Positions 45,275-63,999 of a stretch of 64,000 bases of DNA are shown here, one piece after another (the first letter of the stretch is position 1; each line of letters opens with the position of its first letter). The notes below the pieces were generated by a model, which saw only the letters and a list, made by a program, of their open reading frames with translations, was not told the origin of the DNA and did not search any database. The stretch is from IMG/VR virus record IMGVR_UViG_3300027917_000024, positions 32,001-96,000 of that record; one strand, given 5' to 3'. Both the position numbers and the translations under genes were made by a program. This stretch comes from a virus.

Positions 45275-48200
45275 TTACCTCTTTATAGACCTGATAATCT
45301 GGTAAATCGGTCCACGAGATGCGATATCCTCATTGATTACATTTATTATGGCCTCTGGATGTTGTAGCATAATAGAAGGTATCATCTTTGGATCCATTAG
45401 ATTAATAACCTTTATGTCCTGTGTTCGTCCTCCTTCTCCAGTAAATGTAACGGGTATGCTTCTGTTATCAGGAAGTGGAACAACAGCTTCAGACTGTCCA
45501 CCTTCTCCAATGACACCAAGAGTAGGTCCACCAGCAATTCCCCCTGACTGGAAGAATGTGGCTTTTAATGTTTGCAAGAGTGTTGTCTGCTCCTTCGTAA
45601 AAGGTCTAATACCACCTTCAATAATTCCACCTTTGGCAACCCGAACTGGCTCAAGTTGTAGCCATCGAGTTCCTATTGGACCGCCCTTAGCAGGTTGTTT
45701 ACCAAATAGTCCTCCTAGACTACTTAGGATATTTACTATGATTAGCCGTGCAATAATATCTGCAAGAGCATCCAATAGAGTCTGAGCAAATTTCTTAAAC
45801 GCTTCTCCTACCCGCCTTGATGTACTCTCTAGTTTGTCTAATTCGCCCCGTGCTTTTGCTATCTCCTTTTGAACCTCTTTCCACTGCTGTGTAAGTTCTA
45901 AGTGCTCTGCGGCCTCTTCTGGCAGTACAAGTCCAACTTCAATTAGATCCATCTCCCTTTTAATCCTAGCTGCTTCTTCTTCTAGCTCTCTCAACTCTCC
46001 TGACATATTTTCAATTTCTTGCTTCGGTGGTCTAAAGATTGCATTCCAGGTATCTACAATTGCTGTGTTGAGTCCTTCCAGTACTGTATTAGCCAGTCCT
46101 TTCCATACCTCGAAGAAATCTGTTGCTTGTCGCTGAAAATCCCACAGAGCATCGACCATTCCTAGTAGTGCTCTGTCCCACGCACTCCCCGTATATTTTG
46201 CTAGTTCGGCTAAAGACTGCCCTGATCTAAGAGCCATATCAATAGCTTGTGCCCAATTTTGATAGTTAATTCTTTGATTTAGAGCAGCCTCATCCGCAGC
46301 CTGTATCAGTATACCCTGGTCTTTTAGTGCATTCAGTACATCTTTTCGTGCTTTTCCCTCACCTATGATTTGATTAATTATTTTATCTTGCTTTATTAGC
46401 TGTTCGTCAAGAGCTTCTGCCTCGCCTTCTTTGTATGTTACTGATTTATCTTCAAGTTTAGCTTTTCGTTCGACTAATAATTCGTATTCTCTTGCCGCCG
46501 CAACTAATTCATCGTACTTATCTTTTTCTTTTATGCGATCAATTATTCCTTTCTTCCCATCCTCAACAGCCTTTTTTGTCTTTTCTACCTTCTCTCTAAG
46601 AGGTACCATTTCCGCTTCTGCTTCTAGTCGTACCTGCCTTTGAAGTTCTATCATATCTTTCAATCTTTCCTTCTGGTCTTCGGCTTTTCCTACGAGCTGA
46701 TCTTGCCACTGGAATATATTACTTACTTCAACTCCTGCTGCTTTAAGAGCTGGAATATCAATATCCATTCGAAGTACCGGTGCAGTCGCTTCAATTTCTT
46801 GCAGAGAAGTTTCTAACATTTCTCGTATTGCGTCCCTGGCTTGAGTCTTTGTGCGCTCAATAGTTTCAAGATAGCTTTTCCGCATAAGATCTTCAAATAT
46901 TATTCGGTAGGTTGCGTATTTTGCCCTAACGTCTCCGGTTCCTTCCCTCAATGCCTTATCTAGTTTTTCTACAAATTCTTCTTTGACATTATAGCTAAAC
47001 TCGTTAATTGATTCGAGTATGTCACTTTCCCATTCTTTAATAGAACCAAGATCAACATCACCTACTAAAAACTGAGCTTCGACTTTAACTTTGGCACGTT
47101 CTAGTTGCTCCTGTGCTATTTGCTGTACCCTTTGGATACTCTTGATGGCAAAATCTGCAAGTTCCCGTGGTTCTATTAACAAGAGTTCAGCATGTTTTCC
47201 TGCGAGATCCCTTATTGTTGCTTCATATTGAACTTTTAGTTGTTCAGTATAATTCTGAAACTGCCGAAGGGAAGCTGTATTTCTAAGCTTGGCCCCCTTG
47301 TCTATCTCTGCTAGAGCCTGTTGAAGTTCCGTTTCTTCCTCCTTTAGTACATCTACATTTCCCTGTATAGCCGCTTTCTGAAGTTCATACCTCTTCTCAA
47401 AATACTTTTGAGCCCAAGGAACTCCCTTCGCTCCTGCTATTTTCTCATCAATCTCCTTCATTTTATTTGCGTAGTTTTCCTTCTCGGCTAGAATTTGTGT
47501 CTGTCTCGCTTTCATATTAGCAATTGCCTCTTCTTCAGCTTTTGTATAAGGAGGTTCGTATGATTCAATTCTTTTAATTGCCTCGTTTGTTTCGGTAATC
47601 TGTTTAACTAGGCCACTTTTTAAACGCTTGTAATTTTCTATCGTTTCCTGTATACGGTTTCTTTGATCTACATTGAATTTTTCTTGTATTTTAAGGCGCT
47701 CCTGCATCAGATTTAGGTATTGTTGTGGAGACATTACTGAGTCAAATGTAGCCACAAATTTATCTAATTCTTCTAATTCTCTTTTTCTTAGAGCTGCCAT
47801 ATCATTATAGAATTGTTCACTAGCTTCTAATCTTGCATGATTATTCTCAGTTTCTTTCTGGAATAGGATTTGATCTTCTTGAAGTTTTGCAGTTTGATAT
47901 TGAACATTACTATCTAAATCCTCGCCTCTAATTTTGTCCATAATAATTCCAAGTTGCTGATTGTCATGATATCGATTGAGCTGTAAGTCGTATAGCTTAT
48001 CCTGTGTTGATTTCATTGTAGTGAATGTTTTCTGTTCTATGGTTGCTATAGTCTTATCAAAATTAAAGCCTAATTTTTCATAATCTTTAAATAAAGTTTG
48101 AAACCAAAGTAGTGCGACCTCATGTGTCCATCCATAGTGTCTTCGAAGTTCTTCAATAATTTCATTTAAAAACTTTGCCTGATCACTGTCTATATTCTTT

Positions 48201-51200
48201 ATGAGTTTTTTAAAGGCTTCTACCAGAAGTCTTTCATCCTCCGCTAGAAATTCTTGAATATCCCCTATGTTTTGTTTGAATATGGCTTCTAATGTTTCTG
48301 GCTGCTTTCCTATAAGTAAGGTTGAAAAGTCCTCACGCACTTCTTGCAGTACTTCAAGCTTCCGTCCCATTTCTTCAATTACCTGATTTGCCTCATCTAC
48401 TTTCTCATTGAAAAATTCTATCCGTTTTGTCAGTTTATCGAATTCCTGCTGGCTTTCTTCTTGGACGGAAAGTTCTCTTGCAGCTTTGATTTTTGTTTCG
48501 GCAGTAATTAATTGTTCGGCATATTTTAATTCAATATCCCGTTGTTTAGTAAGTAGATCTAGATTTCTTTGTATATGAATTGATCTTTCAGAGCCCATCT
48601 CAGATATAGTTTTGGACAGATATTTACGGCTCTCATCCATTAATTTCTTCTCTGTCTCATAAAAGTCTTTTGATATTAATTTTATCTTGTTGTAATACTC
48701 CTGAAATTTCTGAGCTCTAATTTGTTCTCTTACTCCAGGTGTGGCAATTATACCTAACTCTGCTATTGCTAGATTAATCTCATTTACCGTATTTTTTGCT
48801 TCTCTAACCATTTCGAGCCGTTCTACCACTGTAGCTTGTGCCATCATTTTTCTTGCGTGGGCAGGTAAAGCGGCCATAACTTGCCGGATAACATTTTGGT
48901 TACGTTCTAGATGTTCTCTTACAACATTTGTTCCGTGCGCAGAAATCCGTGAAATTGTTCCGAACATTCGTTCATAGGCAGCTTCTAAATCATTAACATT
49001 ATCTACCATATCTACTATTTGTTTTGCCATGGCTAATCCAGCATCGCCAAGAACTTTTTTCTGCTTCTCCCCAATTTTTTCGAAGTCTTTTATTAGATTT
49101 TTTGCTTCCTTACTCGATACATCCATTCCACCTCTAAGCAATTGTTCAAATTTTTCTATGTTTATTCCTGCTCTTTTTAAATGCTCTCTCGACAAACTTC
49201 CCATTCTACCATAATAAATTCGTAGACGGGCTTCGATAGAGCGTTGTTCTTGTTCACTTGCACCTTGAAGGGATCTCATGAGCTCTATCATTCGTTGCAA
49301 TGTATTGTAATAGTACGCTGCTGAAACGTCACTGAATTTTTTTTGATGCTCATCAAATGCGGCTGTATAAGATGAAAGCTCCGCTCTTAGTTTGTCTATG
49401 TCACTGGCACCTTCTGACAGTAGTTTTTTTCTAGCTACTAGATTGCGCTGTTGTATTTCACGGAGATCTGCATCCATTTCTACTAGAGTTGCTTTTAGTG
49501 TTGCTGGTGTTTCCTTTTCAAATTTATCTACAAATGTTGAAGCTTCTGCTATAGCGTCAGTAAGAGCCTTTTTAGTAGCATCCGGCGCAAGAGCCGCAAA
49601 AGGAGAAAGCAAAGGTCGTTGGAGCCTTGTGCGAAGAGCGGCATATTCAGTTTCTATATCAGCAAATGCCGTTTCTTTCTCTATTTCTTTTTCTATATCT
49701 TTTACCATTTTCCTAACATCTTCTCGCCCTATTTCAACACCAATTTTTATATTATAATCTTTGAATATATCCTGAATCTCTGGAGGAAGATCACGAATAA
49801 CCCTAAGTAGCTCACTGTTGGCAACTTGACCTGCGTCACCTACTCCTAATAGTAATTCTTTCAATCTTTGTAGCGTAAATACTGGCTCTTCAAGTCTTTT
49901 GAATTGTAACCAAATAAGGTTAACATCTTTAGGGAGTTCTTTGCCCTGTATTATCAGTTCAGTAAATCCTTTAGCAAGATCCACTACATTTTTTCGAAAT
50001 TTCTCAAGCCCAGTTGTGGATTCAAGCTCCCTGCCAAGAGCATTAGCTCCATCATATAAACCATACATTTTTCTCGTAACAGAGGAAAGTCGTATTTCCA
50101 GCTCTCTTAATTGCTTAGCTTCTTTTTCTTCTAACTTTTCCAATCGTTCTAATAGTTCTATTCTTTTCTGGGTAAGTTCTGTCCATTTTGCAATAGATTT
50201 TTCTATTTCTCCTGTTGTTGCAAGCTCTGCATCTAAATAAGCTAATATACCAGGATACTGTAGTTTTAACCTTTCTCGTACCCTTAACCATTTTTCGGTA
50301 TAAGGAATTGTAGTACGATATTCTTCTGCTAATTCACGTAACGCTTGTTGTTCTGCTTCAATAGCGTCAAGTGTTTCTAAGTATGCTTCTCTTGCCTTTT
50401 CCAGTTCTGTGTTTGCAGTTCTCAGTGCTTCCTCTTGTTTTTTATACGCCTTATATAGCAGATACCCTGCAAATACTACAGCAGCAATCGCCAATCCTAT
50501 CTTATTTAGACCCATCCAGAAGCCAGTAAGGGCGGCTTTAAGTGCAGTAAGTGACGTGACAGTAGCCCATATACTTTTTGTAGTTTTGGCCATTGCTGCT
50601 GGAACGAGTATGGTAAAAGTTTGCTTAAAATCAAAAGCTACACCCTGAACCGCCTTTTCAGTAAGATCCATTTGTCCAGTAAGAGATCTGAAATATAATA
50701 TAAGAGCAGTGACAGGTTTTGACAGTGCTTCAAGAGCCTTACTACTAGTAGCAATTCTTTTCATTAAAAGTAGTTTACCCATTCCTCTTAATATTCCATA
50801 CACGACTGCTATTTGTACTGCCAATCGTTTTAAAGTATCAGGAAGCCAAGATAATGTGTCTCCTGCCGCATTCAAAACCCATACAAGACCTTTAAGCAAG
50901 CTAACTACTGGTTCGATAGCATCTTTACCTAACAATTTGAATCTAGCTACAAGTATTTTGACTTGTTGAGCAAAAGTTTCAATCTTGAGTTTTGCCATGG
51001 ATTCTGCCAGATTGTCAAATTTACCAGTTTGCAGGGCGGCAACTGTTTTATTTAGTTCATCTAAATTTGTAATAAGTCCTACCGCAGCTCTTTTCCCAAC
51101 CTGTCCGAATATATCTTGAAGTTTATCGAATTGTATGGTCGTAAGCTGTCCTTGATACATACCTCTTTCTAGTGCTGCATTTAATTTGGTAAGAACATCA

Positions 51201-54200
51201 ACTAGATCTAAGGGTTTTGTAAAATCAATATCAATGCTGAACGCTTTTGCCAGTTCCTTGGCATTAGATGTAAGTTGTGTTAGAACTCTTGATGCTGACC
51301 TACCAGCTTTGGATCCTAAAAGTAATCTGTTGTTTAGCACAGACAAAACACCTAAAACCTGTTCAAATGATAATCCAGCCGCATCTGCCTCGTTGATCAT
51401 ATAACCTAGACCAGCAATTAACCCGTTCATATCAACCTGGGATTGATTAAGTGTTGCAGCTAAACGGTCATTGATATATCTGAATTTATCTGATGCATCC
51501 CCTGCTTTTGCTACTTGATCTCCAAAAACTCTAAACAATCCAGCTGTAATTCTAGTTGCTTCGCCAATCTCCAATTCTGCTGCTAGTGCTAGATTGGTGA
51601 CATGACTAACACCTGCCATTGCTTCTTTCATTGAAAGGCCAGCAGAGATCAATTCCCACATGATAGTGGCTAGATCTTCTACAGCTGATCCAGTCCGTAT
51701 CATCTCACTTCTTAATCTACTCATAATTTCAACGGATTTGGCTGATACATTATACTCTGCAGCGATTGCGGTTGTAACACGAGCTACCTGTGTTTCTAGT
51801 TCTGCATAAAATTTTACAAGATCTCTTACACCACGAGTAAACCTAAAAATGATATTCTGGGTTGCGTACCATCTGATCTGAACAAGTATTAGACTTTTTA
51901 TGTCGGAGATAAGAGTGTTGACCATCTGGGTAACACCTTTATATCGTCCCTGTAATTTATTTACTTGGGTCGATAAATTTTGTGCTTCTTTTGCTAATTC
52001 TTCGTAGGCTTTTGCTTGTTCTCTTGTACCGTCCTTACTCTTATCCATTATAGTATTGTATAACTGTTGAAGCTTAACATTCCTACCCGTTTCTGAAGCT
52101 AGTTTGAAAAGTAACCCTGGATGTCCCCTTCTTAATTGTAATTCCTCTTGCAATTTTTGTATGTATTGTCCCTCTACAACTATTTGATCTTGTAGAAATC
52201 GTGCTGCTTCTTCTCGTGGTGCTTTCTCTAGTTTCATGGCTTTAATTACGGCCTCAATTCTTTTCTGTCGGGCCTCAGCAATATTTTCACCCTTTTTTTC
52301 TTGTTCGCCGTATAGTTCAAGCTGTTCTCTTGCTTCTCTTAATTCTTGTGATTTTTTTGCATCCAGTCCTTCTATTTTCATTTTTGGTTCAAACTCTTCG
52401 AATTTCTCTCCCGTTTCTGTCATAAGCCTTTCTACTTCCCTAACGGCATTTTCTCTTAAGCTTACAATTACCTTTTCTACTTCTTCTAGTTTTTTTGTTT
52501 TTAGTTCTAGAGGTACTCCGCTTAATTTTTCCATCTCTTGCCTCAACAAACGAACAAGATCCCTCGCTTCAACAAATTGTTTCTTGTCTTTGAGTTCTTT
52601 GACACGTTCAAGCATAGTTCTGGCTTTATCAAGAGCCTGAATCTCTGTTATATATTTATTCATGCCATCTATATTGGTTGATAAGATTTGTGCGAATTGT
52701 CGTTCGGCATTTCCAAGATTCTGTGTACGTCCGGTTACTGCTCCAACAGTATCACCAAGATCGGATATCACCTTCTTAAATCCACTTACTCGATTTGTAA
52801 CTGCTTCGTACCCTCTACCTATAGCAACTAATCCGGCTTGTCCTTTGGTTATTCCTTTCTGTATTTGTACAATATCAATGAATTGCTGTTTTAGTACCTC
52901 TATAGTTTGACCAAGAGAAATCATCCGTGCTCTTTCTTCTTCAAGTATTACTCCTTGTTTCATAAGATCTTGGTATATTTTATATTGTGCTGATAAATTC
53001 TGTAGAGATGCTCCACCACGATCCTGAGCTCCAATGAGTATTTCTAATCTCTCTCTCATCACTTCGATATCTCTTCCCGTTTTTTCAACTTCCACTCCGA
53101 TTGCCAATTTTTTCTGCCCTTCTGCAGATAATTGCTGTAACTTCTCCCGAACAATATCAATTCTAGAACCTACTTTTCCCAATGCGTCTTCAAGTATCTT
53201 TATTACAGTTTTGAGATCTAAGCCTTCAAGCTTACTTGTATCAATCTCTATATCAGTGAACAGTTTTATGGCTGCAGCTAATCCCTCAATCTGTGCTTTT
53301 GTTTGAGTCAGTTCTTTATCGCCCAGTCCAATTTTCTTGTCTTGAACTGACCGTAACTGATGGAGTACACTGCCTAGAGATTCATACAAGAATTTTAATT
53401 GCTCTACCCTTCGAATCCTCAAATTAATGTTTTCTACCATTATCTTTTCTTTTGCTTCTTCTTCGGTGGCCTGTTGTGCTGTCGCACCGGTCATGATAGC
53501 TAATGATTGGATAAGGCCATCCATATGTTGTTTGAATACTTTCAACTTCGCATTAATAATTTCATATTTCTCTCCTACAGTTCCTAATTTTGCTGCTGAT
53601 TGGGCAATATCTAACTCAGCCACGTTCTTGGACTGCTGAGATAAAGTTTTCATTGCGGCCTGGACATCTTTCAAATGCTTAACCTGAGCCGCTGATGCTA
53701 CTCCTTGGACTTGTAATTGTTGAAGAAGACTCATCTCCTTCTTCAATGAACTTGCCGTCACTCCTGTAACCATCATTTCTCTTTGTAGTTTTTCTAACTC
53801 TTTTTGTAGCTTAGGAATGCTATCAGCAGCCTTTTCGATTCCATCATCTAAATTTATTTCTTTCTCCATTTCCGTAAATAGTTTATGAACTGCTTCAAGT
53901 GCCGGATCAACCCCTTCCTTAACTAATCTACCTAATTCTTCAACCAATGCTTTGAGGACTTTGGGTTCCCGTAACTGTTCAACATAAGTAAAACTTTTAA
54001 TCATATCCCGAGTGTTTGAATTTAGGGCTGAAAGGGCTTTATCTAGTGCTTTAAAGCTATCTTCACTTATTCCCACCTTACTTTTCATTTGTCCAAGAAC
54101 GATATTAGCACTATTAATTGCTGCTCTCATCCTATGTATATCAGGAGGTATACCAGCCACAATCTCATCCATCTTCGAGAATGTATCAACCATTTTCTGG

Positions 54201-57085
54201 CCGGTTGCATCTACTCCTATACCGAGATTTCCAATAATTCCTGCGACACTTTTAGTTTTTTCTTCCAACAATCTCATCCTTGCTGTTGCTTCACTGAATT
54301 GCTCGCCAAACACCTTCTTTTTACCGGAAATTTCGGCTAATTTATTCATAATTGTTTCAAGTGCATCAAGTCGGACAGATGTTTTTCCAGCGGCTAATCC
54401 TAACCGTATAATTTCTTCCACCTGTTGCCCAAATATAGGAACAGATCTCTCTACTATTTCTCCTAGTACCGTCAATTGATTTGTATAAGCCTTCTTTGTT
54501 TGAATACCTAATGTTTCTTGGGCGTTCAGTTCTTCTAGTTTTATCTTGAGGTTCCCTACTGCCATCGCATTTTTATCTAATGCATCTGCCTGGAATTCTG
54601 TTACTTCAAGTCCTGTTTGTACTGGTGCAAATTTCATTTCCTTTGTCATTTGCCTACCAGCTCTAATTGCTAATTCTCCGTATATATCTTCAATTTGCTG
54701 TACATGCTCCTTGAACATATTGAGCTCTTCGTTGAGTGTATTTTTAAGTAATGTCATCCATTCTCGGAGCTCATTGATTCGTGCGTAGTATGCTTTCTCC
54801 GCTCCTTCTTGTGTGCTAACCCGTTTTATTTCTTGTCCAAGTGCCGTATACTTTTCCTTGTTATCTATAGCCAGCCCCCTCATTACTATCAGATCTTTTA
54901 TATGCTGTTTTGCCCACGCTGTAGGACTTCTTTGACTAATACCAATAAGTTCCTCGTTCAAATCATGCCAAGCTTGTGCATTTGTTTCTACCGATGCCGA
55001 TAATTTATTCAGATCGTTATCAAGTTTGACAAACTCTTCAAATCCTGGGAGTCCTATGCCTGAGATTTCTCCTGTTACTTTCCTAAATATATCCACTTTT
55101 TCGATTACTTTCTCTGTTGCCGCTCTGACTACCTCTTTCATTGATGTCCAACTATTTTCAATCCCAACACTGGCACTCCTAAAAGTAGTTAATAATTCCC
55201 TGAGACTACTAATACTTCCTTGAAAGTTGACATCTAGTTTCATTGTTTTCAATGACATCAACCTCTGCATTTCCATAGTTTGTTTTGCCAGCAGCCCCAT
55301 ATTATCTGTGAATAGTTGGATTTGGCTTATTACAGCAGTCCCCAATCCTTTGGTTCCAAAATCAATTGCGGTATCCCTTGCGGCCTGGAATGTCCTTCTT
55401 GTATTTCCCATTTTATTTGCAAGCATATCTAGAAAGCCGATATAGGAATCAATCATTTTCATATCCTCTTGCTTTATAACACCCCTCAATTCTTCTCGCA
55501 TGGAAGCAAATCGTGTTCTTAGCCGCATGAGTGTATCTTCTACAGTTCGCAAAGGGATTTCCAAAGCTTGTCCAAGAATTTTGGGATCTGGTACAAAATC
55601 CTTAATATCTAGTCTAGCACCCTTAAATCCTGTTATAGACTCTCTGAATACCTGTTGTATACTATTCCTTGCTTCTTTACCACCCTTTTTAGCGGTGTCG
55701 TCAATGCTATCCCAAGTAGCTCTCCACTTTTGTACTATCTGTTCTTCTCCTTCAGTAAGTTCTGCTCTTCCTTCTGGATCCAAACCTAATAACTTCAGGA
55801 TACTTTCTGTTGGTTGACCGCTAGTAAGTACTGCAAGTATGGCTTCAAATGCTCCAGACAGCTTTAATGCTTTCGTAACACTCCTTTCTAATGAAAGACG
55901 TATAGTGTCTACACTATCCCGTACCTTATCAGATGTTACTGCAGCACGTTTTAGATCAACATCAACGGAAAGTTGGTCTAGTTTGGCTGTTTCAGTGAAA
56001 AGTTTTGACGTTTGTTCTGATAGTGACCTTAAAGATGCAATCTGTTTCTCTACCTCCTCCCTTTGTTCACCTGTAATACCTTTTGTTCTTCTTAATCTTT
56101 CAAGTCGTGCAATTACCTGATCTATTTGGTTATCTAATGCTTGGAATATCTTTCTTGCAGGAGGTCCAAATTTAGTATCTATAGCTTCTCCAGCATCTTT
56201 TAGCCCACCTTTGACATTTTTTGCTTTTGCGACAAACTCGTCTACAAGATTATTTGCATCTTTAATAGTTTTTATGTCTAGGGGTTGCCATTCTCCTGTC
56301 CTCGTTACCCGCAATACTGAGCTCATATCTAAAAGATGTTCTTTTGTTGATATAAATAGTTTTTCTTGGTCTCTTGTTCTAGCATTCATTATCTGTAGGT
56401 CGATTATCATATCGTGTAATTTATCAGAACCTGGATCTATTTTTTGCCAAGATAAAAGTTGATTTTTTATATGACCTACTTGTGGGGCTATGGAGCTACC
56501 TAATAACTTTGCAAATTTCTCAAGAGATGGCATTAAAACTCCAGCCTCTGGTAACTTTAATGCCTCTGCTATTCCTGCAGTTCTGATCATTTGGTCAAAA
56601 CGTTTCAGAGTTTGTAATAGATCTATTGCCTCAGTTTTTATTCTACCAATAGCTTGCTGCTTTTGTGCCGATGCCCTTGCAAATTTTGGGTCTGCCTGTA
56701 CTTGATTTATAGTGTTAATTAATGTTTCTACTGCCCGTAATGTATTACTGGATCTCGATCCAAAATCTTCTATAGTTTTTGTAGATTTTATTGTACTTTC
56801 TGCTACTGCAGTGAGGCTTTCTTTAAGAGATCTTCCAGAATGTTGCAACTGGTCGAAAAAATTTTCAGTTACCTTCGTCAAGTCTTGTATCATCTTTATT
56901 ATATTCTGTGTCTCTGTCCCTAGTTCCTCAAAGCCCTCCGTATCTGGAGTCATTTTTACTGTTTCAAGGGCTTTATTTATCTTGCCAGCCAAATTCACTA
57001 TGGCACTTACTGCTTGCTGAAGAGTGGTAATATCAGCACCAATATCTACATAAATGCCGCCTATTTTTTGTCCACCGTTAGCCAT
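45275..57085 (-). CDS. Tape measure protein (3936 aa)
   Basis: IGGIYVDIGAD N-terminus, long helical body, TP901-like core (L.SAGLS...KAGRS) and C-terminal GG...GE.G.EAVVPL; follows the G/GT chaperones. Confidence 0.95.
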   Translation of the reverse strand: MANGGQKIGGIYVDIGADITTLQQAVSAIVNLAGKINKALETVKMTPDTEGFEELGTETQNIIKMIQDLTKVTENFFDQLQHSGRSLKESLTAVAESTIKSTKTIEDFGSRSSNTLRAVETLINTINQVQADPKFARASAQKQQAIGRIKTEAIDLLQTLKRFDQMIRTAGIAEALKLPEAGVLMPSLEKFAKLLGSSIAPQVGHIKNQLLSWQKIDPGSDKLHDMIIDLQIMNARTRDQEKLFISTKEHLLDMSSVLRVTRTGEWQPLDIKTIKDANNLVDEFVAKAKNVKGGLKDAGEAIDTKFGPPARKIFQALDNQIDQVIARLERLRRTKGITGEQREEVEKQIASLRSLSEQTSKLFTETAKLDQLSVDVDLKRAAVTSDKVRDSVDTIRLSLERSVTKALKLSGAFEAILAVLTSGQPTESILKLLGLDPEGRAELTEGEEQIVQKWRATWDSIDDTAKKGGKEARNSIQQVFRESITGFKGARLDIKDFVPDPKILGQALEIPLRTVEDTLMRLRTRFASMREELRGVIKQEDMKMIDSYIGFLDMLANKMGNTRRTFQAARDTAIDFGTKGLGTAVISQIQLFTDNMGLLAKQTMEMQRLMSLKTMKLDVNFQGSISSLRELLTTFRSASVGIENSWTSMKEVVRAATEKVIEKVDIFRKVTGEISGIGLPGFEEFVKLDNDLNKLSASVETNAQAWHDLNEELIGISQRSPTAWAKQHIKDLIVMRGLAIDNKEKYTALGQEIKRVSTQEGAEKAYYARINELREWMTLLKNTLNEELNMFKEHVQQIEDIYGELAIRAGRQMTKEMKFAPVQTGLEVTEFQADALDKNAMAVGNLKIKLEELNAQETLGIQTKKAYTNQLTVLGEIVERSVPIFGQQVEEIIRLGLAAGKTSVRLDALETIMNKLAEISGKKKVFGEQFSEATARMRLLEEKTKSVAGIIGNLGIGVDATGQKMVDTFSKMDEIVAGIPPDIHRMRAAINSANIVLGQMKSKVGISEDSFKALDKALSALNSNTRDMIKSFTYVEQLREPKVLKALVEELGRLVKEGVDPALEAVHKLFTEMEKEINLDDGIEKAADSIPKLQKELEKLQREMMVTGVTASSLKKEMSLLQQLQVQGVASAAQVKHLKDVQAAMKTLSQQSKNVAELDIAQSAAKLGTVGEKYEIINAKLKVFKQHMDGLIQSLAIMTGATAQQATEEEAKEKIMVENINLRIRRVEQLKFLYESLGSVLHQLRSVQDKKIGLGDKELTQTKAQIEGLAAAIKLFTDIEIDTSKLEGLDLKTVIKILEDALGKVGSRIDIVREKLQQLSAEGQKKLAIGVEVEKTGRDIEVMRERLEILIGAQDRGGASLQNLSAQYKIYQDLMKQGVILEEERARMISLGQTIEVLKQQFIDIVQIQKGITKGQAGLVAIGRGYEAVTNRVSGFKKVISDLGDTVGAVTGRTQNLGNAERQFAQILSTNIDGMNKYITEIQALDKARTMLERVKELKDKKQFVEARDLVRLLRQEMEKLSGVPLELKTKKLEEVEKVIVSLRENAVREVERLMTETGEKFEEFEPKMKIEGLDAKKSQELREAREQLELYGEQEKKGENIAEARQKRIEAVIKAMKLEKAPREEAARFLQDQIVVEGQYIQKLQEELQLRRGHPGLLFKLASETGRNVKLQQLYNTIMDKSKDGTREQAKAYEELAKEAQNLSTQVNKLQGRYKGVTQMVNTLISDIKSLILVQIRWYATQNIIFRFTRGVRDLVKFYAELETQVARVTTAIAAEYNVSAKSVEIMSRLRSEMIRTGSAVEDLATIMWELISAGLSMKEAMAGVSHVTNLALAAELEIGEATRITAGLFRVFGDQVAKAGDASDKFRYINDRLAATLNQSQVDMNGLIAGLGYMINEADAAGLSFEQVLGVLSVLNNRLLLGSKAGRSASRVLTQLTSNAKELAKAFSIDIDFTKPLDLVDVLTKLNAALERGMYQGQLTTIQFDKLQDIFGQVGKRAAVGLITNLDELNKTVAALQTGKFDNLAESMAKLKIETFAQQVKILVARFKLLGKDAIEPVVSLLKGLVWVLNAAGDTLSWLPDTLKRLAVQIAVVYGILRGMGKLLLMKRIATSSKALEALSKPVTALILYFRSLTGQMDLTEKAVQGVAFDFKQTFTILVPAAMAKTTKSIWATVTSLTALKAALTGFWMGLNKIGLAIAAVVFAGYLLYKAYKKQEEALRTANTELEKAREAYLETLDAIEAEQQALRELAEEYRTTIPYTEKWLRVRERLKLQYPGILAYLDAELATTGEIEKSIAKWTELTQKRIELLERLEKLEEKEAKQLRELEIRLSSVTRKMYGLYDGANALGRELESTTGLEKFRKNVVDLAKGFTELIIQGKELPKDVNLIWLQFKRLEEPVFTLQRLKELLLGVGDAGQVANSELLRVIRDLPPEIQDIFKDYNIKIGVEIGREDVRKMVKDIEKEIEKETAFADIETEYAALRTRLQRPLLSPFAALAPDATKKALTDAIAEASTFVDKFEKETPATLKATLVEMDADLREIQQRNLVARKKLLSEGASDIDKLRAELSSYTAAFDEHQKKFSDVSAAYYYNTLQRMIELMRSLQGASEQEQRSIEARLRIYYGRMGSLSREHLKRAGINIEKFEQLLRGGMDVSSKEAKNLIKDFEKIGEKQKKVLGDAGLAMAKQIVDMVDNVNDLEAAYERMFGTISRISAHGTNVVREHLERNQNVIRQVMAALPAHARKMMAQATVVERLEMVREAKNTVNEINLAIAELGIIATPGVREQIRAQKFQEYYNKIKLISKDFYETEKKLMDESRKYLSKTISEMGSERSIHIQRNLDLLTKQRDIELKYAEQLITAETKIKAARELSVQEESQQEFDKLTKRIEFFNEKVDEANQVIEEMGRKLEVLQEVREDFSTLLIGKQPETLEAIFKQNIGDIQEFLAEDERLLVEAFKKLIKNIDSDQAKFLNEIIEELRRHYGWTHEVALLWFQTLFKDYEKLGFNFDKTIATIEQKTFTTMKSTQDKLYDLQLNRYHDNQQLGIIMDKIRGEDLDSNVQYQTAKLQEDQILFQKETENNHARLEASEQFYNDMAALRKRELEELDKFVATFDSVMSPQQYLNLMQERLKIQEKFNVDQRNRIQETIENYKRLKSGLVKQITETNEAIKRIESYEPPYTKAEEEAIANMKARQTQILAEKENYANKMKEIDEKIAGAKGVPWAQKYFEKRYELQKAAIQGNVDVLKEEETELQQALAEIDKGAKLRNTASLRQFQNYTEQLKVQYEATIRDLAGKHAELLLIEPRELADFAIKSIQRVQQIAQEQLERAKVKVEAQFLVGDVDLGSIKEWESDILESINEFSYNVKEEFVEKLDKALREGTGDVRAKYATYRIIFEDLMRKSYLETIERTKTQARDAIREMLETSLQEIEATAPVLRMDIDIPALKAAGVEVSNIFQWQDQLVGKAEDQKERLKDMIELQRQVRLEAEAEMVPLREKVEKTKKAVEDGKKGIIDRIKEKDKYDELVAAAREYELLVERKAKLEDKSVTYKEGEAEALDEQLIKQDKIINQIIGEGKARKDVLNALKDQGILIQAADEAALNQRINYQNWAQAIDMALRSGQSLAELAKYTGSAWDRALLGMVDALWDFQRQATDFFEVWKGLANTVLEGLNTAIVDTWNAIFRPPKQEIENMSGELRELEEEAARIKREMDLIEVGLVLPEEAAEHLELTQQWKEVQKEIAKARGELDKLESTSRRVGEAFKKFAQTLLDALADIIARLIIVNILSSLGGLFGKQPAKGGPIGTRWLQLEPVRVAKGGIIEGGIRPFTKEQTTLLQTLKATFFQSGGIAGGPTLGVIGEGGQSEAVVPLPDNRSIPVTFTGEGGRTQDIKVINLMDPKMIPSIMLQHPEAIINVINEDIASRGPIYQIIRSIKR

Positions 57086-59726: not shown

Positions 59727-60422
<696 letters not shown>

Positions 60423-60429
60423 TCACTCC

Positions 60430-60753
60430 TTAACTTAGAAATGCTTTTACAAATTCCCGAACGCCTCTAATGTTATACTTATTACTGTAAGTTATAACAG
60501 TATATTCTGTACCTCCAAATAAGAATATATAGTCAGTATTAATTATCGTTGCTGACCCCTCTATTTCTGTAGGTAACCAGCATTCAATTTGAGCCATTAC
60601 TTCATTGCCCTCTTTATTTAGCACCATCTGAAATTCTTCGTTCCACCGACAAGGAACATTACTGTATACGGTTGTTTTTGTAACTGTTCCGTAGCCATCC
60701 CTAGATACAGAATAGATGGTTGTAATTGTTTGTCTAAGAAGATCAGATATCAT
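60430..60753 (-). CDS. Head-closure/head-tail adaptor protein
   Basis: 107 aa; D.YG...VPCR...G.EY.V pattern; precedes the gp10-like gene. Confidence 0.75.
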   Translation of the reverse strand: MISDLLRQTITTIYSVSRDGYGTVTKTTVYSNVPCRWNEEFQMVLNKEGNEVMAQIECWLPTEIEGSATIINTDYIFLFGGTEYTVITYSNKYNIRGVREFVKAFLS

Positions 60754-61540
60754 GTTTGCCTCTTATGTAATCTGAATATTTAAATGTATCTTGGATGGCT
60801 GATAATGTTTCATTTCGATAAAGTTCCTTAGGTCTCTTGGTACTTCTCAATCCCGCCTTGACCCACAGACCTTTGTCGAGATGGACAACGTATGTATTTT
60901 TTAGCAGTAGTGTTCTTCCACCGCTATTATTATTTCGCTGTTCCCACTCTTCTTCATTATAATCCCATTCTACTTCTGGGTCAAAGTAATTTTTTGAATC
61001 GAACATATTTTCTTTGAGGGCTCGGCGTGATGCCCCCCAACAAAAACCTTGGGCACTGGTTATATGCCATACTAAATCTTGCGACTCATATTCTTCTTCT
61101 GGTACGTGCTGCAGTTCCTGATATGCCGAACTGCTGGCTACCGGTGCTATAAAATCTCTGTTCTGTCTTTTTACCGCTTGAATGAAATATTCCCAGGATC
61201 TTGTAACTAATATATCCTGATTGAGCATTACTACTGCCTCACAATCGAAATCATCAAGTGCAATTCGTATAATTTCATTCCAAGCGTGTGTAAGATCATT
61301 AATATCTGATTGAATAAAAAGCGAATTTACATGCTTGAATCGTTTCCGAAGTGCGATGTTCAATGCACGAAATCGATAATCCAGTGAGTCATTATCTCTT
61401 ATGATGAGGACGTATTCTTCCTTCGTAAACATATCAATTCCAGAAATCAGATCCATCAACAGGGCAAAAGGATCGGTATGTTCTGTTATCTCTTGCTTAT
61501 CAATTACATCATTATGTGTAACAATGCCAATACCAATCAC
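60743..61540 (-). CDS. GT-A fold (family 2-like) glycosyltransferase
   Basis: IGIVTHN, IRDNDS, AWN, MLNQD (DXD-equivalent), GFC and VVH motifs. Confidence 0.75.
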   Translation of the reverse strand: MIGIGIVTHNDVIDKQEITEHTDPFALLMDLISGIDMFTKEEYVLIIRDNDSLDYRFRALNIALRKRFKHVNSLFIQSDINDLTHAWNEIIRIALDDFDCEAVVMLNQDILVTRSWEYFIQAVKRQNRDFIAPVASSSAYQELQHVPEEEYESQDLVWHITSAQGFCWGASRRALKENMFDSKNYFDPEVEWDYNEEEWEQRNNNSGGRTLLLKNTYVVHLDKGLWVKAGLRSTKRPKELYRNETLSAIQDTFKYSDYIRGKHDI

Positions 61541-61542
61541 GG

Positions 61543-62415
61543 TTATTTCCTATGTATAAGATCTACAGCCTTTTTCACATCTGTAAAAACGTCTTCATCT
61601 GTCGTTTCGATGTACCAATCTGTGTTCCTTGTTGGATCAATGGTTTTTCCCTTCAAGAAGTGCATATCAAACGGATAAATAATAAAAGCAGGAACGTGGG
61701 CTGTATATGCTAAAAATCCCAATCCGTATGGTCCAGAGAGTAAAAGATCTGAGTTTAGAAGTACCGCCATCTGTTCGGTCAGTGTCTTACCGGCATAGTT
61801 ATGTAATGTGAAGTTGAATGGTTCCAATGCCTCAGTTATGGATCTTTCTATCATTCCTGCTTTTGTCGAATGTACTACTGCTACCATATAAATATGAATT
61901 GGTTTGTTTACCTGTGCTTCTATTTTATCCAGGCAGTAAATCAGATCATATTGCAAGGAAAATTCTGCATCATAATTCGTATCAAAAGCGTTAATGGCAA
62001 TATTGATGGCATTTTTATCAATGAGTTTCTGTACGTCCTCAAACATTTCCTTGTTCACATTGATTTTATGCATATAATTTGTCGGTTGCCTGGGAAAAAT
62101 CTTCTCTAAATGATGGTTCTTAAGATGCTCTATAATATCAATGTTAATAGTATTATTTACATATCGGTTCAAATCAATGTCATGTGGAAAATTAGCTACT
62201 GAGACGTATTCCTCATAAATAGGAGTAGGACCCAGATAAGCAATTCCATTGAATGAACTTATAATATCTTGTGAAAGAACGAATTTTTTTGCTTTTTTAT
62301 CGTAAGCTGTATTTATTCCGATCAAGTCGAAATTACTCATGACTAATTTCCGATACAGCAAAATAAAGTTAGTAAAATCATCTCGTACCAGGCAGGTAAG
62401 CAGCCTCTTTTCCAT
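61543..62415 (-). CDS. Divergent GT9-like (GT-B) protein
   Basis: NYAGKTLTEQMAVLLNSDLLLS...LA....VP matches the GT9 C-terminal pattern, but DSGxxH is replaced by PYGLGF. Confidence 0.55.
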   Translation of the reverse strand: MEKRLLTCLVRDDFTNFILLYRKLVMSNFDLIGINTAYDKKAKKFVLSQDIISSFNGIAYLGPTPIYEEYVSVANFPHDIDLNRYVNNTINIDIIEHLKNHHLEKIFPRQPTNYMHKINVNKEMFEDVQKLIDKNAINIAINAFDTNYDAEFSLQYDLIYCLDKIEAQVNKPIHIYMVAVVHSTKAGMIERSITEALEPFNFTLHNYAGKTLTEQMAVLLNSDLLLSGPYGLGFLAYTAHVPAFIIYPFDMHFLKGKTIDPTRNTDWYIETTDEDVFTDVKKAVDLIHRK

Positions 62416-62424
62416 GGTTCCTCC

Positions 62425-63795
62425 TTACTCTACAAAATATACCTTCTTGTATAGTTCTGTCATACTGTCACTCTCAATATTATAATTTTTAAGAACGAAC
62501 TTTTTTCCCTCTTCTGCATATTCTGTTACTTTATCTATATTATTTATACAGAAATCTATCGCATCCATCCAATCATCAAGTTTTCCAGCCTGTTCCGTCT
62601 GTGTAGGAACTAGCATGCACGAGTTTTCCATTTCTTTTTTGATATTTGAGTACGGGTCGATATCGGAGCAGACAGGAAAAGCTGTTGTATAAAGATATTC
62701 CAAAAGTTTGATGGGGCTTTTTGATCGATTGAAGTCACATTCCACAAGAGGAGCAAGTCCAATATGCATCTGAAAGCTACTCAAAATCTGATGGTAATAG
62801 ATGGGTTCAACAAATGGAAGGGAAATGATTCTATTAAAATAAGGAGATAGGTCCTTTGGTGGAGACTCGCCCATAAAAAGCATGCCTATATTTTCATACT
62901 TATCAAACAATTTTGGAATAAGCCCTCCAAAAACCTCTGTATCCTTCTGATGAAATGATGATCCAATCCAAGCAATAATAATATCAGAGTCGTATTGTAA
63001 TTTTTTTGGAAGATCAATATATTTATGATCAAATACACAGTTAGGGACGACCATTACATCATCATTATGCTTTCTCAACACATCAGCAAGAGGTTCGGTT
63101 GTTGTTACTGCCCTATCACATTTCTTCAATATATTTGTTGTCACTCCAGTCCTCATTGGTGTCCAAAAGGGATATGCATGGTTCCAGTCCGGTAGATTCC
63201 ATATATCATCATCAAGCTCAAACACCACTTTCTTACCACTAGCTTGTGCCTCTTCTACAACACCCTCAAGACTAGGATCTGCTGGACGTTGAATGACCAG
63301 AGTATCAGCTAGATTATATAAATGGATTCGATCTGTAGTGATGAGATGTGCGGGAATTCCCTTCCTGCATAAAGCAACACTCGGTAAAAACATTCTGTAA
63401 TAACCGCATCCCCATTTTCGATGGTACGTCTAACCGTTGGATTTCTCCGCTCTCTAGACTCTCATAGTTTCCTATGAGCTCGGACCATATCATCATCCTA
63501 AAACATATAATAGGATGTCTCGCTTTTCGAACTCACTTGAGTTCTACACTTTACGTTGGTCTCTGAACCTGCCCCATATATAATCTGTACATGAAGGGGA
63601 TTGGCTGCTGATCGTCCAATCTTTTGGTTTTTTAGCTGTCACGTTTAACATTTCTGTTTCCGTTGTAGCACCAAAAGCTCTATAGGAGTTTCCAGCAATT
63701 AACGAGATTTGCATCTAGGTATTACTACCTAGAGGGACAAATGGTTTATCCGCCGCCATAAACGATACGGTTTTTACTTCTGGTTCTTGCTGCAT
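62425..63795 (-). CDS. GT-B fold (family 4-like) glycosyltransferase split by a group I intron: exon 1 63795-63748, in-frame exon 2 63417-62425
   Basis: AGGAGAGG RBS. Joined exons read MQQEPEVKTVSFMAAD-KWGCGYYRMFLP, restoring the AD..GCG.YR motif. Also IQR, ELDD, VPN, WIGS..H..D and FN.SKS.IK.LEY. Confidence 0.85.
63418..63747 (-). ncRNA. Group I self-splicing intron (about 330 nt, IA-like, no ORF)
   Basis: P1 GGAU|AAA-CCA-UUUGUCC with U.G at the 5' splice site; P2 with GUAA loop; P=AAUUGCUGGAAA; Q=AUCAGCAG; R=UCAGAGACCA; S=GAUAUGGUCC; P3 UCUCGU/GCGAGA; P7.x hairpin 63529-63544; P8 63494-63517; P9 GAAA hairpin 63461-63478; P10 CCAUUU/AAAUGG. Confidence 0.93.
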
Positions 63796-63858
63796 ACTTC
63801 CTCTCCTTTTTCTTTTTTGTTTGTCTTTTGCTTCTTTTGGCCATCCAATTTTCTCCGA

Positions 63859-63999
63859 TTACCTCCTTTTTCGCCGCCTCGTTCTCTTCCTCCTTTTTTT
63901 AGTAGCTTTATTGGCTGGAATTGCTTGCTGGTACGTGTTGAACGGCCCTGCAATCCGTCTTCGCCTTCCAAATACAGATGGTTGGCTATAGACATAATA
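63859..63999 (-). CDS. C-terminal fragment of an Arg/Lys-rich protein (begins outside the window)
   Basis: Open frame YYVYSQPSVFGRRRRIAGPFNTYQQAIPANKATKKRRKRTRRRKRR-stop, ending before the GT RBS. Confidence 0.45.
   Translation of the reverse strand, partial: YYVYSQPSVFGRRRRIAGPFNTYQQAIPANKATKKRRKRTRRRKRR

Follow-up and report, generated by a model that had tools for sequence, protein, structure and literature searches.

An unannotated group I intron in a phage glycosyltransferase gene, with an A where the reading frame places its 3' end

Subgroup IA is the usual type of group I intron in phages, and a final G is a near-universal rule for group I introns. In the Tetrahymena intron, a change of this final G to A crippled exon ligation. 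Natural introns that end in A exist. The 23S rRNA intron Cbu.L1917 of Coxiella burnetii, bacterial and self-splicing, is said in the 2007 work of Raghavan et al. to be one that 'lacks the canonical omegaG', and it reportedly ends in A; unlike the intron described here, it lies in an rRNA gene and not in a protein-coding one. The hexacoral mitochondrial intron ND5-717 also has A as its last base, and RNA reads show that its exons are joined exactly (PMC8146996). It shares the final A with the in-frame reading of our intron but differs in being mitochondrial and vertically inherited, in belonging to a different subgroup and in having genes inserted in P8, and PMC8146996 describes no sister intron at its site that ends in G.

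The introns in T4 td, nrdB and sunY and in phages of Staphylococcus, Lactococcus and Bacillus (IA, IA2-type) have the catalytic core in common with the intron reported here. They also resemble it in that the frame of the first exon stops shortly inside the intron, and in having P7.1/P7.2 inserted between the P7 5' strand and the P3 3' strand, the extra helices that mark subgroup IA (Michel and Westhof 1990). The present intron stands apart from them in its glycosyltransferase host, in the absence of a homing endonuclease ORF and in an in-frame 3' end that is A. When the region was used as a blastn query, matching stretches were returned from 111 phage records (60–80% identity over ~110–145 nt of the query). 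These are known as sequence matches only, and lie under RNA polymerase beta subunit and tail tape measure genes, among others.

The window analyzed here, 64,000 nucleotides in length, comprises bases 32001–96000 of a 105,150-base viral contig. A covariance-model search with RF00028 (Intron_gpI) gave a strong match at 63757..63461 on the minus strand, scoring 101.6 bits (E 3.5e-25) against a gathering score of 50 bits and spanning the full model (positions 1–253). This match is the sole one in the whole contig. The stretch 63418–63747, singled out as an unannotated group I intron in the original prediction, is almost certainly a genuine one (Table 1). Its P7.1/P7.2 helices, located between the P7 5' strand and the P3 3' strand, assign it to subgroup IA. 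No endonuclease ORF was found inside the intron, as had been predicted; the single internal ORF (56 aa, 63544–63714) shares bases with the ribozyme core and matches no PHROG or Pfam family. With the 3' bond left aside, identity and general mechanism very probably are those of an ORF-less group I intron of subgroup IA, its splicing being predicted from the sequence. The intron is of a kind that is ordinary for phages, except that the 3' end that restores the frame is an A, one base beyond the usual final G.

Table 1. Coordinates of the intron, its helices, the flanking exons and the two sister introns. Positions refer to the window unless another contig is named.
Feature	Position	Strand	Details
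RBS GGAG	63803–63806	-	7 nt before exon 1 ATG; read from sequence
Exon 1	63748–63795	-	16 codons, MQQEPEVKTVSFMAAD; ends GAU, U63748 being the 5' splice-site U
Group I intron	63418–63747	-	330 nt by reading frame; 329 nt if the end is G63419; boundaries from homologs
P1	63735–63751	-	GGAUAAA (63751–63745) : UUUGUCC (63741–63735), loop CCA; U63748.G63738 at the cut
Internal guide, 5' part CCAUUU	63739–63744	-	Forms P10 with bases 1–6 of exon 2
P2 hairpin	63716–63731	-	UAGGU, loop AGUAAU, ACCUA
P3	63707–63701 : 63524–63518	-	Read from sequence
P5 with ~60-nt extension	63612–63688	-	Insertion in the model alignment; sister introns without it
P7 5' strand, G(A)GACCA	63557–63563	-	G63561–C63483 is the guanosine-pocket pair
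P7.1/P7.2 region	63529–63556	-	Between P7 5' strand and P3 3' strand; 6-bp hairpin 63544–63529
P7 3' strand, UGGUCC	63482–63487	-	Three-intron alignment
P9 hairpin	63461–63478	-	7 bp, GAAA loop
P9.1	63428–63459	-	GUCUA:UAGAC around a GGA-GAAA-UCC hairpin
3' tail, GUACCAUCGA	63418–63427	-	P9.0-capable U63421 and C63420, then G63419 and extra A63418
Exon 2	62425–63417	-	330 codons + stop, KWGCGYYRMFLPS...; predicted GT-B type glycosyltransferase body
Sister intron L086	Ga0307377_10014067, L086:2741–3000		260 nt
Sister intron L087	Ga0307379_10009766, L087:2504–2764		261 nt

In unspliced RNA, translation from the exon 1 start would end 10 codons inside the intron. The gene body lies in a frame that opens at 63429 and, starting with 63417, reads KWGCGYYRMFLPS... 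for 330 codons. Removal of the intron gives ...VKTVSFMAAD|KWGCGYYRMFLPS, and the exons joined in this way (63748|63417) exactly match the N-terminus of the intron-less protein P0002, MEQDTGVKTVSFMAADKWGCGYYRMFLPS, which is the closest homolog (88% identical). The original prediction that a 16-codon exon joins the glycosyltransferase body and restores AD-KW-GCGYYR is borne out by this match; the exon has a good ribosome-binding site. The insertion point follows codon 16 (GAU, Asp) and precedes codon 17 (AAA, Lys), just ahead of an invariant GCGxYR motif.

The host protein matches the PHROG family phrog_7162, 'glycosyltransferase' (E 1.5e-30), and its more distant homologs carry PF00534, PF13692 and PF13439. 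In a Pfam search, the host protein itself stayed below threshold (PF13439, 14.2 bits against a cut-off of 28.5); a PDB sequence search with the family profile gave no match, and genome contigs scanned with the protein profile yielded no relative. A tblastn search of deposited phages returned only homologs of 22–29% identity, mostly annotated as glycosyltransferase. By sequence, the host gene is a predicted GT-B / GT4-like glycosyltransferase. Genes for a head-tail connector, a major tail protein and a tail chaperone lie downstream of the transferase, and the intron interrupts what is probably the first gene of a sugar-transferase cluster; the phage is an uncultured tailed one from marine sediment, and the cluster falls within its head-tail module. 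We found no group I intron in a phage glycosyltransferase in the literature, as judged from titles and abstracts. Since none of the titles or abstracts returned by the search combines more than one of group I intron, glycosyltransferase and phage, this host gene, which the original prediction had called unusual, looks unreported; the novelty is modest.

Homologous loci (106 in total) were taken from viral and metagenome contigs. In all but a handful (~100 loci), the N-terminus is uninterrupted and has a start codon, and 12 close homologs of 345–364 aa have 15–30 extra N-terminal residues that end x-D-x-x-GCGxYR. Intron-less alleles with an N-terminus like that encoded by exon 1 are thus present in both sets. 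At three loci (L085, L086, and L087), the frame is lost 17 codons before the motif. RF00028 matches this site in L086 (85.7 bits) and L087 (95 bits), and L085 is identical to L086 in sequence but is truncated where its contig ends. The two sister introns have no ORF and occupy the same GAU|AAA site in the same gene family as the window intron, with which they share P1 and the guide (UUUGUCC), P2, the P7.2 hairpin, P9, and P9.1. Over aligned columns, the introns are 79–80% identical to that of the window, compared with 63% for exon 2 DNA. The sisters differ from the window intron in having a canonical final G directly before AAA, in lacking the 60-nt extension of P5, and in a P10 of three pairs plus one G.U, with CG or AG in the P1 loop where the window has CCA. 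Their removal gives FFPAD|KFGCGYYR and FFPSD|KWGCGFYR, which match the intron-less protein P0013. A 5' cut of the window intron after A63749, which would produce Glu-Lys-Trp, was considered and rejected: in each of the three copies the site is set by the U.G pair, and none of the 12 close homologs and hardly any of the ~100 loci has lost the Asp.

Maximum-likelihood phylogeny places the window gene as sister to the intron-less P0002 and P0003, and joins L086 and L087 to the intron-less P0013 as their sister. The intron therefore occurs in two separate clades, each sister to intron-less genes, and its state must have changed at least twice. What the tree describes is a small intron lineage at one codon boundary in two branches of the gene family, apparently gained or lost at least twice. 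Its distribution among close alleles is patchy, as expected of a mobile intron; the endonuclease ORF that is also expected of one is absent. Exon 1 ends CGGAU in all three intron-bearing alleles (window 63748–63752; L086:2736–2740; L087:2499–2503), and in six intron-less alleles, the equivalent of exon 1 ends in AGAU or UGAU, with a different codon before the Asp. The guide requires CGGAU for P1, and its presence in the intron-bearing alleles is consistent with selection for that pairing or with co-conversion of the exon flank during homing.

A search of viral contigs for the P1–P2 motif returned nothing. Two 16-nt matches to the P9.1 motif in viral contigs (L108 and L109) were discarded as chance matches; neither has an RF00028 match. 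Three further proteins in the family (P0010, P0014, and P0015) are calls of 305–311 aa with an internal start (MGIPAH... or MTTDRIH...), like the truncated calls of L086 and L087. They may represent further intron-bearing alleles.

The catalytic core could be followed helix by helix. All of the elements listed in the original prediction (P1 with its U.G pair, P2, P3, P7 GACCA:UGGUC, a P7.x hairpin, P8, P9 with a GNRA loop, and P10) were located in the sequence, and P4, P5, P6, and P8 are all readable in the window. The conserved core from P3 to P8, including the P3/P7 pseudoknot, is therefore present. All seven pairs of P1 are kept in the three introns, with GGAU : GUCC containing the U.G wobble at the 5' splice site. 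P7 consists of GACCA:UGGUC plus G63563–C63482 across a bulged A, and its guanosine-pocket pair is G-C in all three copies. The P5 extension folds with a predicted energy of −16.3 kcal/mol, with a 7-bp stem (CUUUUGG:CCAAAAG). The P7.1/P7.2 region appears as a 30-nt insertion in the model alignment; its hairpin covaries, as does the inner hairpin of P9.1, in which an A-U pair is replaced by U-A in L087. G63481–C63420 and A63480–U63421 could form P9.0. When the hand-drawn P1–P9.1 fold was imposed on the three introns, 97% of cells paired, as against 34–47% with the partners slid. Compensatory pairs, in which both sides have changed, number eight and fall in P3, P5, P7, P7.2, P8, P9, and P9.1; the covariation is drawn from only three copies of the intron lineage and hence from few sequences.

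The 3' splice site presents a conflict between the reading frame and the final-G rule. The sister introns end ...ACACAUUG, with AAA directly after, and comply with the rule, whereas the window reads ...CCAUCG-A-AAAUGG. G63419 is the homologue of the omega-G of the sisters, and A63418 is an extra base, so that the in-frame boundary of the window intron lies one base beyond the G. A cut after G63419 leaves four A's and a +1 frameshift (Asp-Lys-Met-Gly-Met-Arg...), and the peptide would end at 50 residues; the homolog sequence at the Asp|Lys boundary results only from cutting after A63418. The boundaries 63418–63747 given in the original prediction stand insofar as they restore both frame and homolog sequence, but that account did not mention that the last base would then be A63418, one past the omega-G homologue. 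An alternative start codon or frame of exon 1 compatible with a G63419 cut was considered and rejected, because that frame has a TAA at 63776–63774 and no later start codon.

The extra A is not an error of assembly or of homopolymer reading. Two Logan contigs (X1 and X2, from two runs of the probable source sample) show 0 differences over 63200–63911, and a contig from another study (X4) covers 63215–63437 with 223 letters on 223 places and no gap. Two studies and three independent sets of contigs thus agree on the extra base. X4 and X3, short contigs from two studies other than that of the source sample, are at least 99% identical to the exons and intron ends and stop inside the intron, at 63437 and 63670; these stops may mark intron variants in those samples, or merely low depth.

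The extra base is accompanied by a change in P10. All six pairs of CCAUUU:AAAUGG are Watson-Crick when exon 2 starts at 63417, and in the G63419 register, three pairs form. The additional pairs stem from the CCA of the P1 loop, which neither sister has and which can pair with the UGG of exon 2. Exon 2 conforms to the family alignment at all 78 invariant columns. Amino-acid changes on its branch number 15, compared with 13 for the intron-less sister P0002, and departures at conserved columns number two and one, respectively. By these counts, relaxed constraint is not seen in exon 2, which counts in favor of a working gene. A possible source of the extra base is suggested by the intron-less locus L098 (L098:1603–1650), which reads GAU AAA AUG GGA (Lys-Met-Gly), where most others read GAU AAA UGG GGA (Lys-Trp-Gly). 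The window sequence AAAAUGGGG (63404–63419) has the four A's of the L098 form and the four G's of the common form. It looks like a misaligned hybrid of the two allele forms, and such an exchange could have made the extra base.

The odd 3' end is the only feature that favors a decayed ribozyme relic, or an assembly chimera of two gene fragments, over a functional intron. The RF00028 score exceeds those of both sister introns, the core helices are all intact, independent contigs carry the identical sequence, and both exons are intact and co-linear with the homologs, which makes a relic or chimera scarcely credible. If the intron does splice, a cut after A63418 would make it an omega-A intron in which the long P10 picks the 3' site and the full-length transferase is produced. 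No other cut gives ...AAD|KWGCGYYR, identical to P0002, and in this register P10 has six Watson-Crick pairs, against three in the G63419 register, with the CCA of the P1 loop complementary to UGG. The persistence of the extra A in X1, X2, and X4, the absence of an excess of amino-acid changes, and the existence of A-ending introns elsewhere are also in keeping with a working gene cut at this position. Other features of the ribozyme argue the other way. The P7 guanosine-pocket pair is unchanged, P9.0 would put G63419 at the omega position, and a genuine G one base upstream should compete for the reaction; the crippled ligation of the Tetrahymena mutant points in the same direction. We regard the cut after A63418, with its full-length product, as close to an even call. 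That the intron is spliced correctly after its terminal A despite the adjacent G and the unchanged pocket, with the lengthened P10 overriding the final-G rule, is proposed more tentatively, and we lean somewhat against it.

Several features of the ribozyme favor a canonical cut after G63419. In both sisters a G is the last base ahead of AAA, P9.0 and the G-C pocket agree with such an end, and the P10 that remains (AAA:UUU) is as long as in the sisters. Translation would then shift frame after Asp-Lys and end after 50 codons, and the transferase would be recently dead in this lineage, with the hybrid at AAAAUGGGG, formed at the end of a co-conversion tract during homing, as a plausible origin. 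However, a random gain of one base exactly on the splice junction is unlikely, and the lengthened P10 would be a coincidence. Exon 2 is intact over 330 codons with every invariant residue and no excess in rate, exon 1 keeps its start codon and ribosome-binding site, and the same allele occurs in samples of two studies. A dead gene cut at G63419 is accordingly a possibility that we take seriously and yet rather doubt. The same cut could be reconciled with a working product by a +1 slip of tRNA-Lys on A-AAA, with Asp-Lys-Trp made in a fraction of translations; the tRNA can re-pair perfectly one base downstream, where the next codon is UGG and the homolog sequence resumes exactly. Such slips are rare on runs of four A, though, and this one would have neither a stimulator nor a clear Shine-Dalgarno-like element upstream; AUG, the codon read next in frame, is not a stop and is not rare. 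Rescue by slippage is improbable. G63412 is the sole in-frame site after a G and would allow a P10 of five pairs, two of them G.U. The product of a cut there (Asp|Gly-Cys-Gly) would lack the Lys-Trp, two residues separate Asp from GCG in every homolog examined, the sister introns define the boundary as Asp|Lys, and P9.0 could not form; we consider this site very improbable.

From sequence and fold, we infer that the window intron is self-splicing. The guide UUUGUCC would pair with the GGAU at the end of exon 1 to form P1, placing the U.G wobble at the cut. A free guanosine held at the P7 pair G63561–C63483 would then cut after U63748. The 5' part of the guide would subsequently hold exon 2 through P10, and the exons would be joined.

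Gene callers miss the first 16 codons and report a truncated transferase, with calls of 303–322 aa in the window, L086, and L087; once the intron is recognized, the invariant N-terminal motif is recovered. A predicted sugar-transferase, probably for virion glycosylation, also joins the range of phage genes in which group I introns occur. If the exons are joined in frame, the intron would be another natural exception to the final-G rule, with its G-ending sisters as built-in controls and the 6-bp P10 as a candidate compensating change. Splicing after A, if true, would set the intron beside naturally occurring G-ending counterparts at the same site, a comparison suited to asking how group I ribozymes choose their 3' splice site. 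If the exons are not joined in frame, the locus would instead hold a frameshift at an intron junction, which may have arisen during homing.

Other genes on the minus strand were also noted. The product of 59727–60419 is 230 aa long and matches HNH endonuclease families over its last 70 residues (phrog_826, E 5.6e-6); the middle of the protein has an acidic repeat and a sub-threshold Pfam PARP-like match. This HNH-like gene is free-standing and belongs to the same operon as the intron, which lies ~3 kb upstream of it, and its product could be a packaging-type enzyme or a nuclease acting in trans on the target site of the ORF-less intron. The genes for the tail assembly chaperone and the major tail protein are followed closely by a single open frame of 3,936 aa (45275–57085) that may encode a giant tape-measure or fibre protein. 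The two genes that follow the transferase (60743–62415) encode proteins of 290 aa and 265 aa with no Pfam match, the latter weakly matching a PHROG family named 'RNA polymerase sigma factor' (E 4.4e-4).
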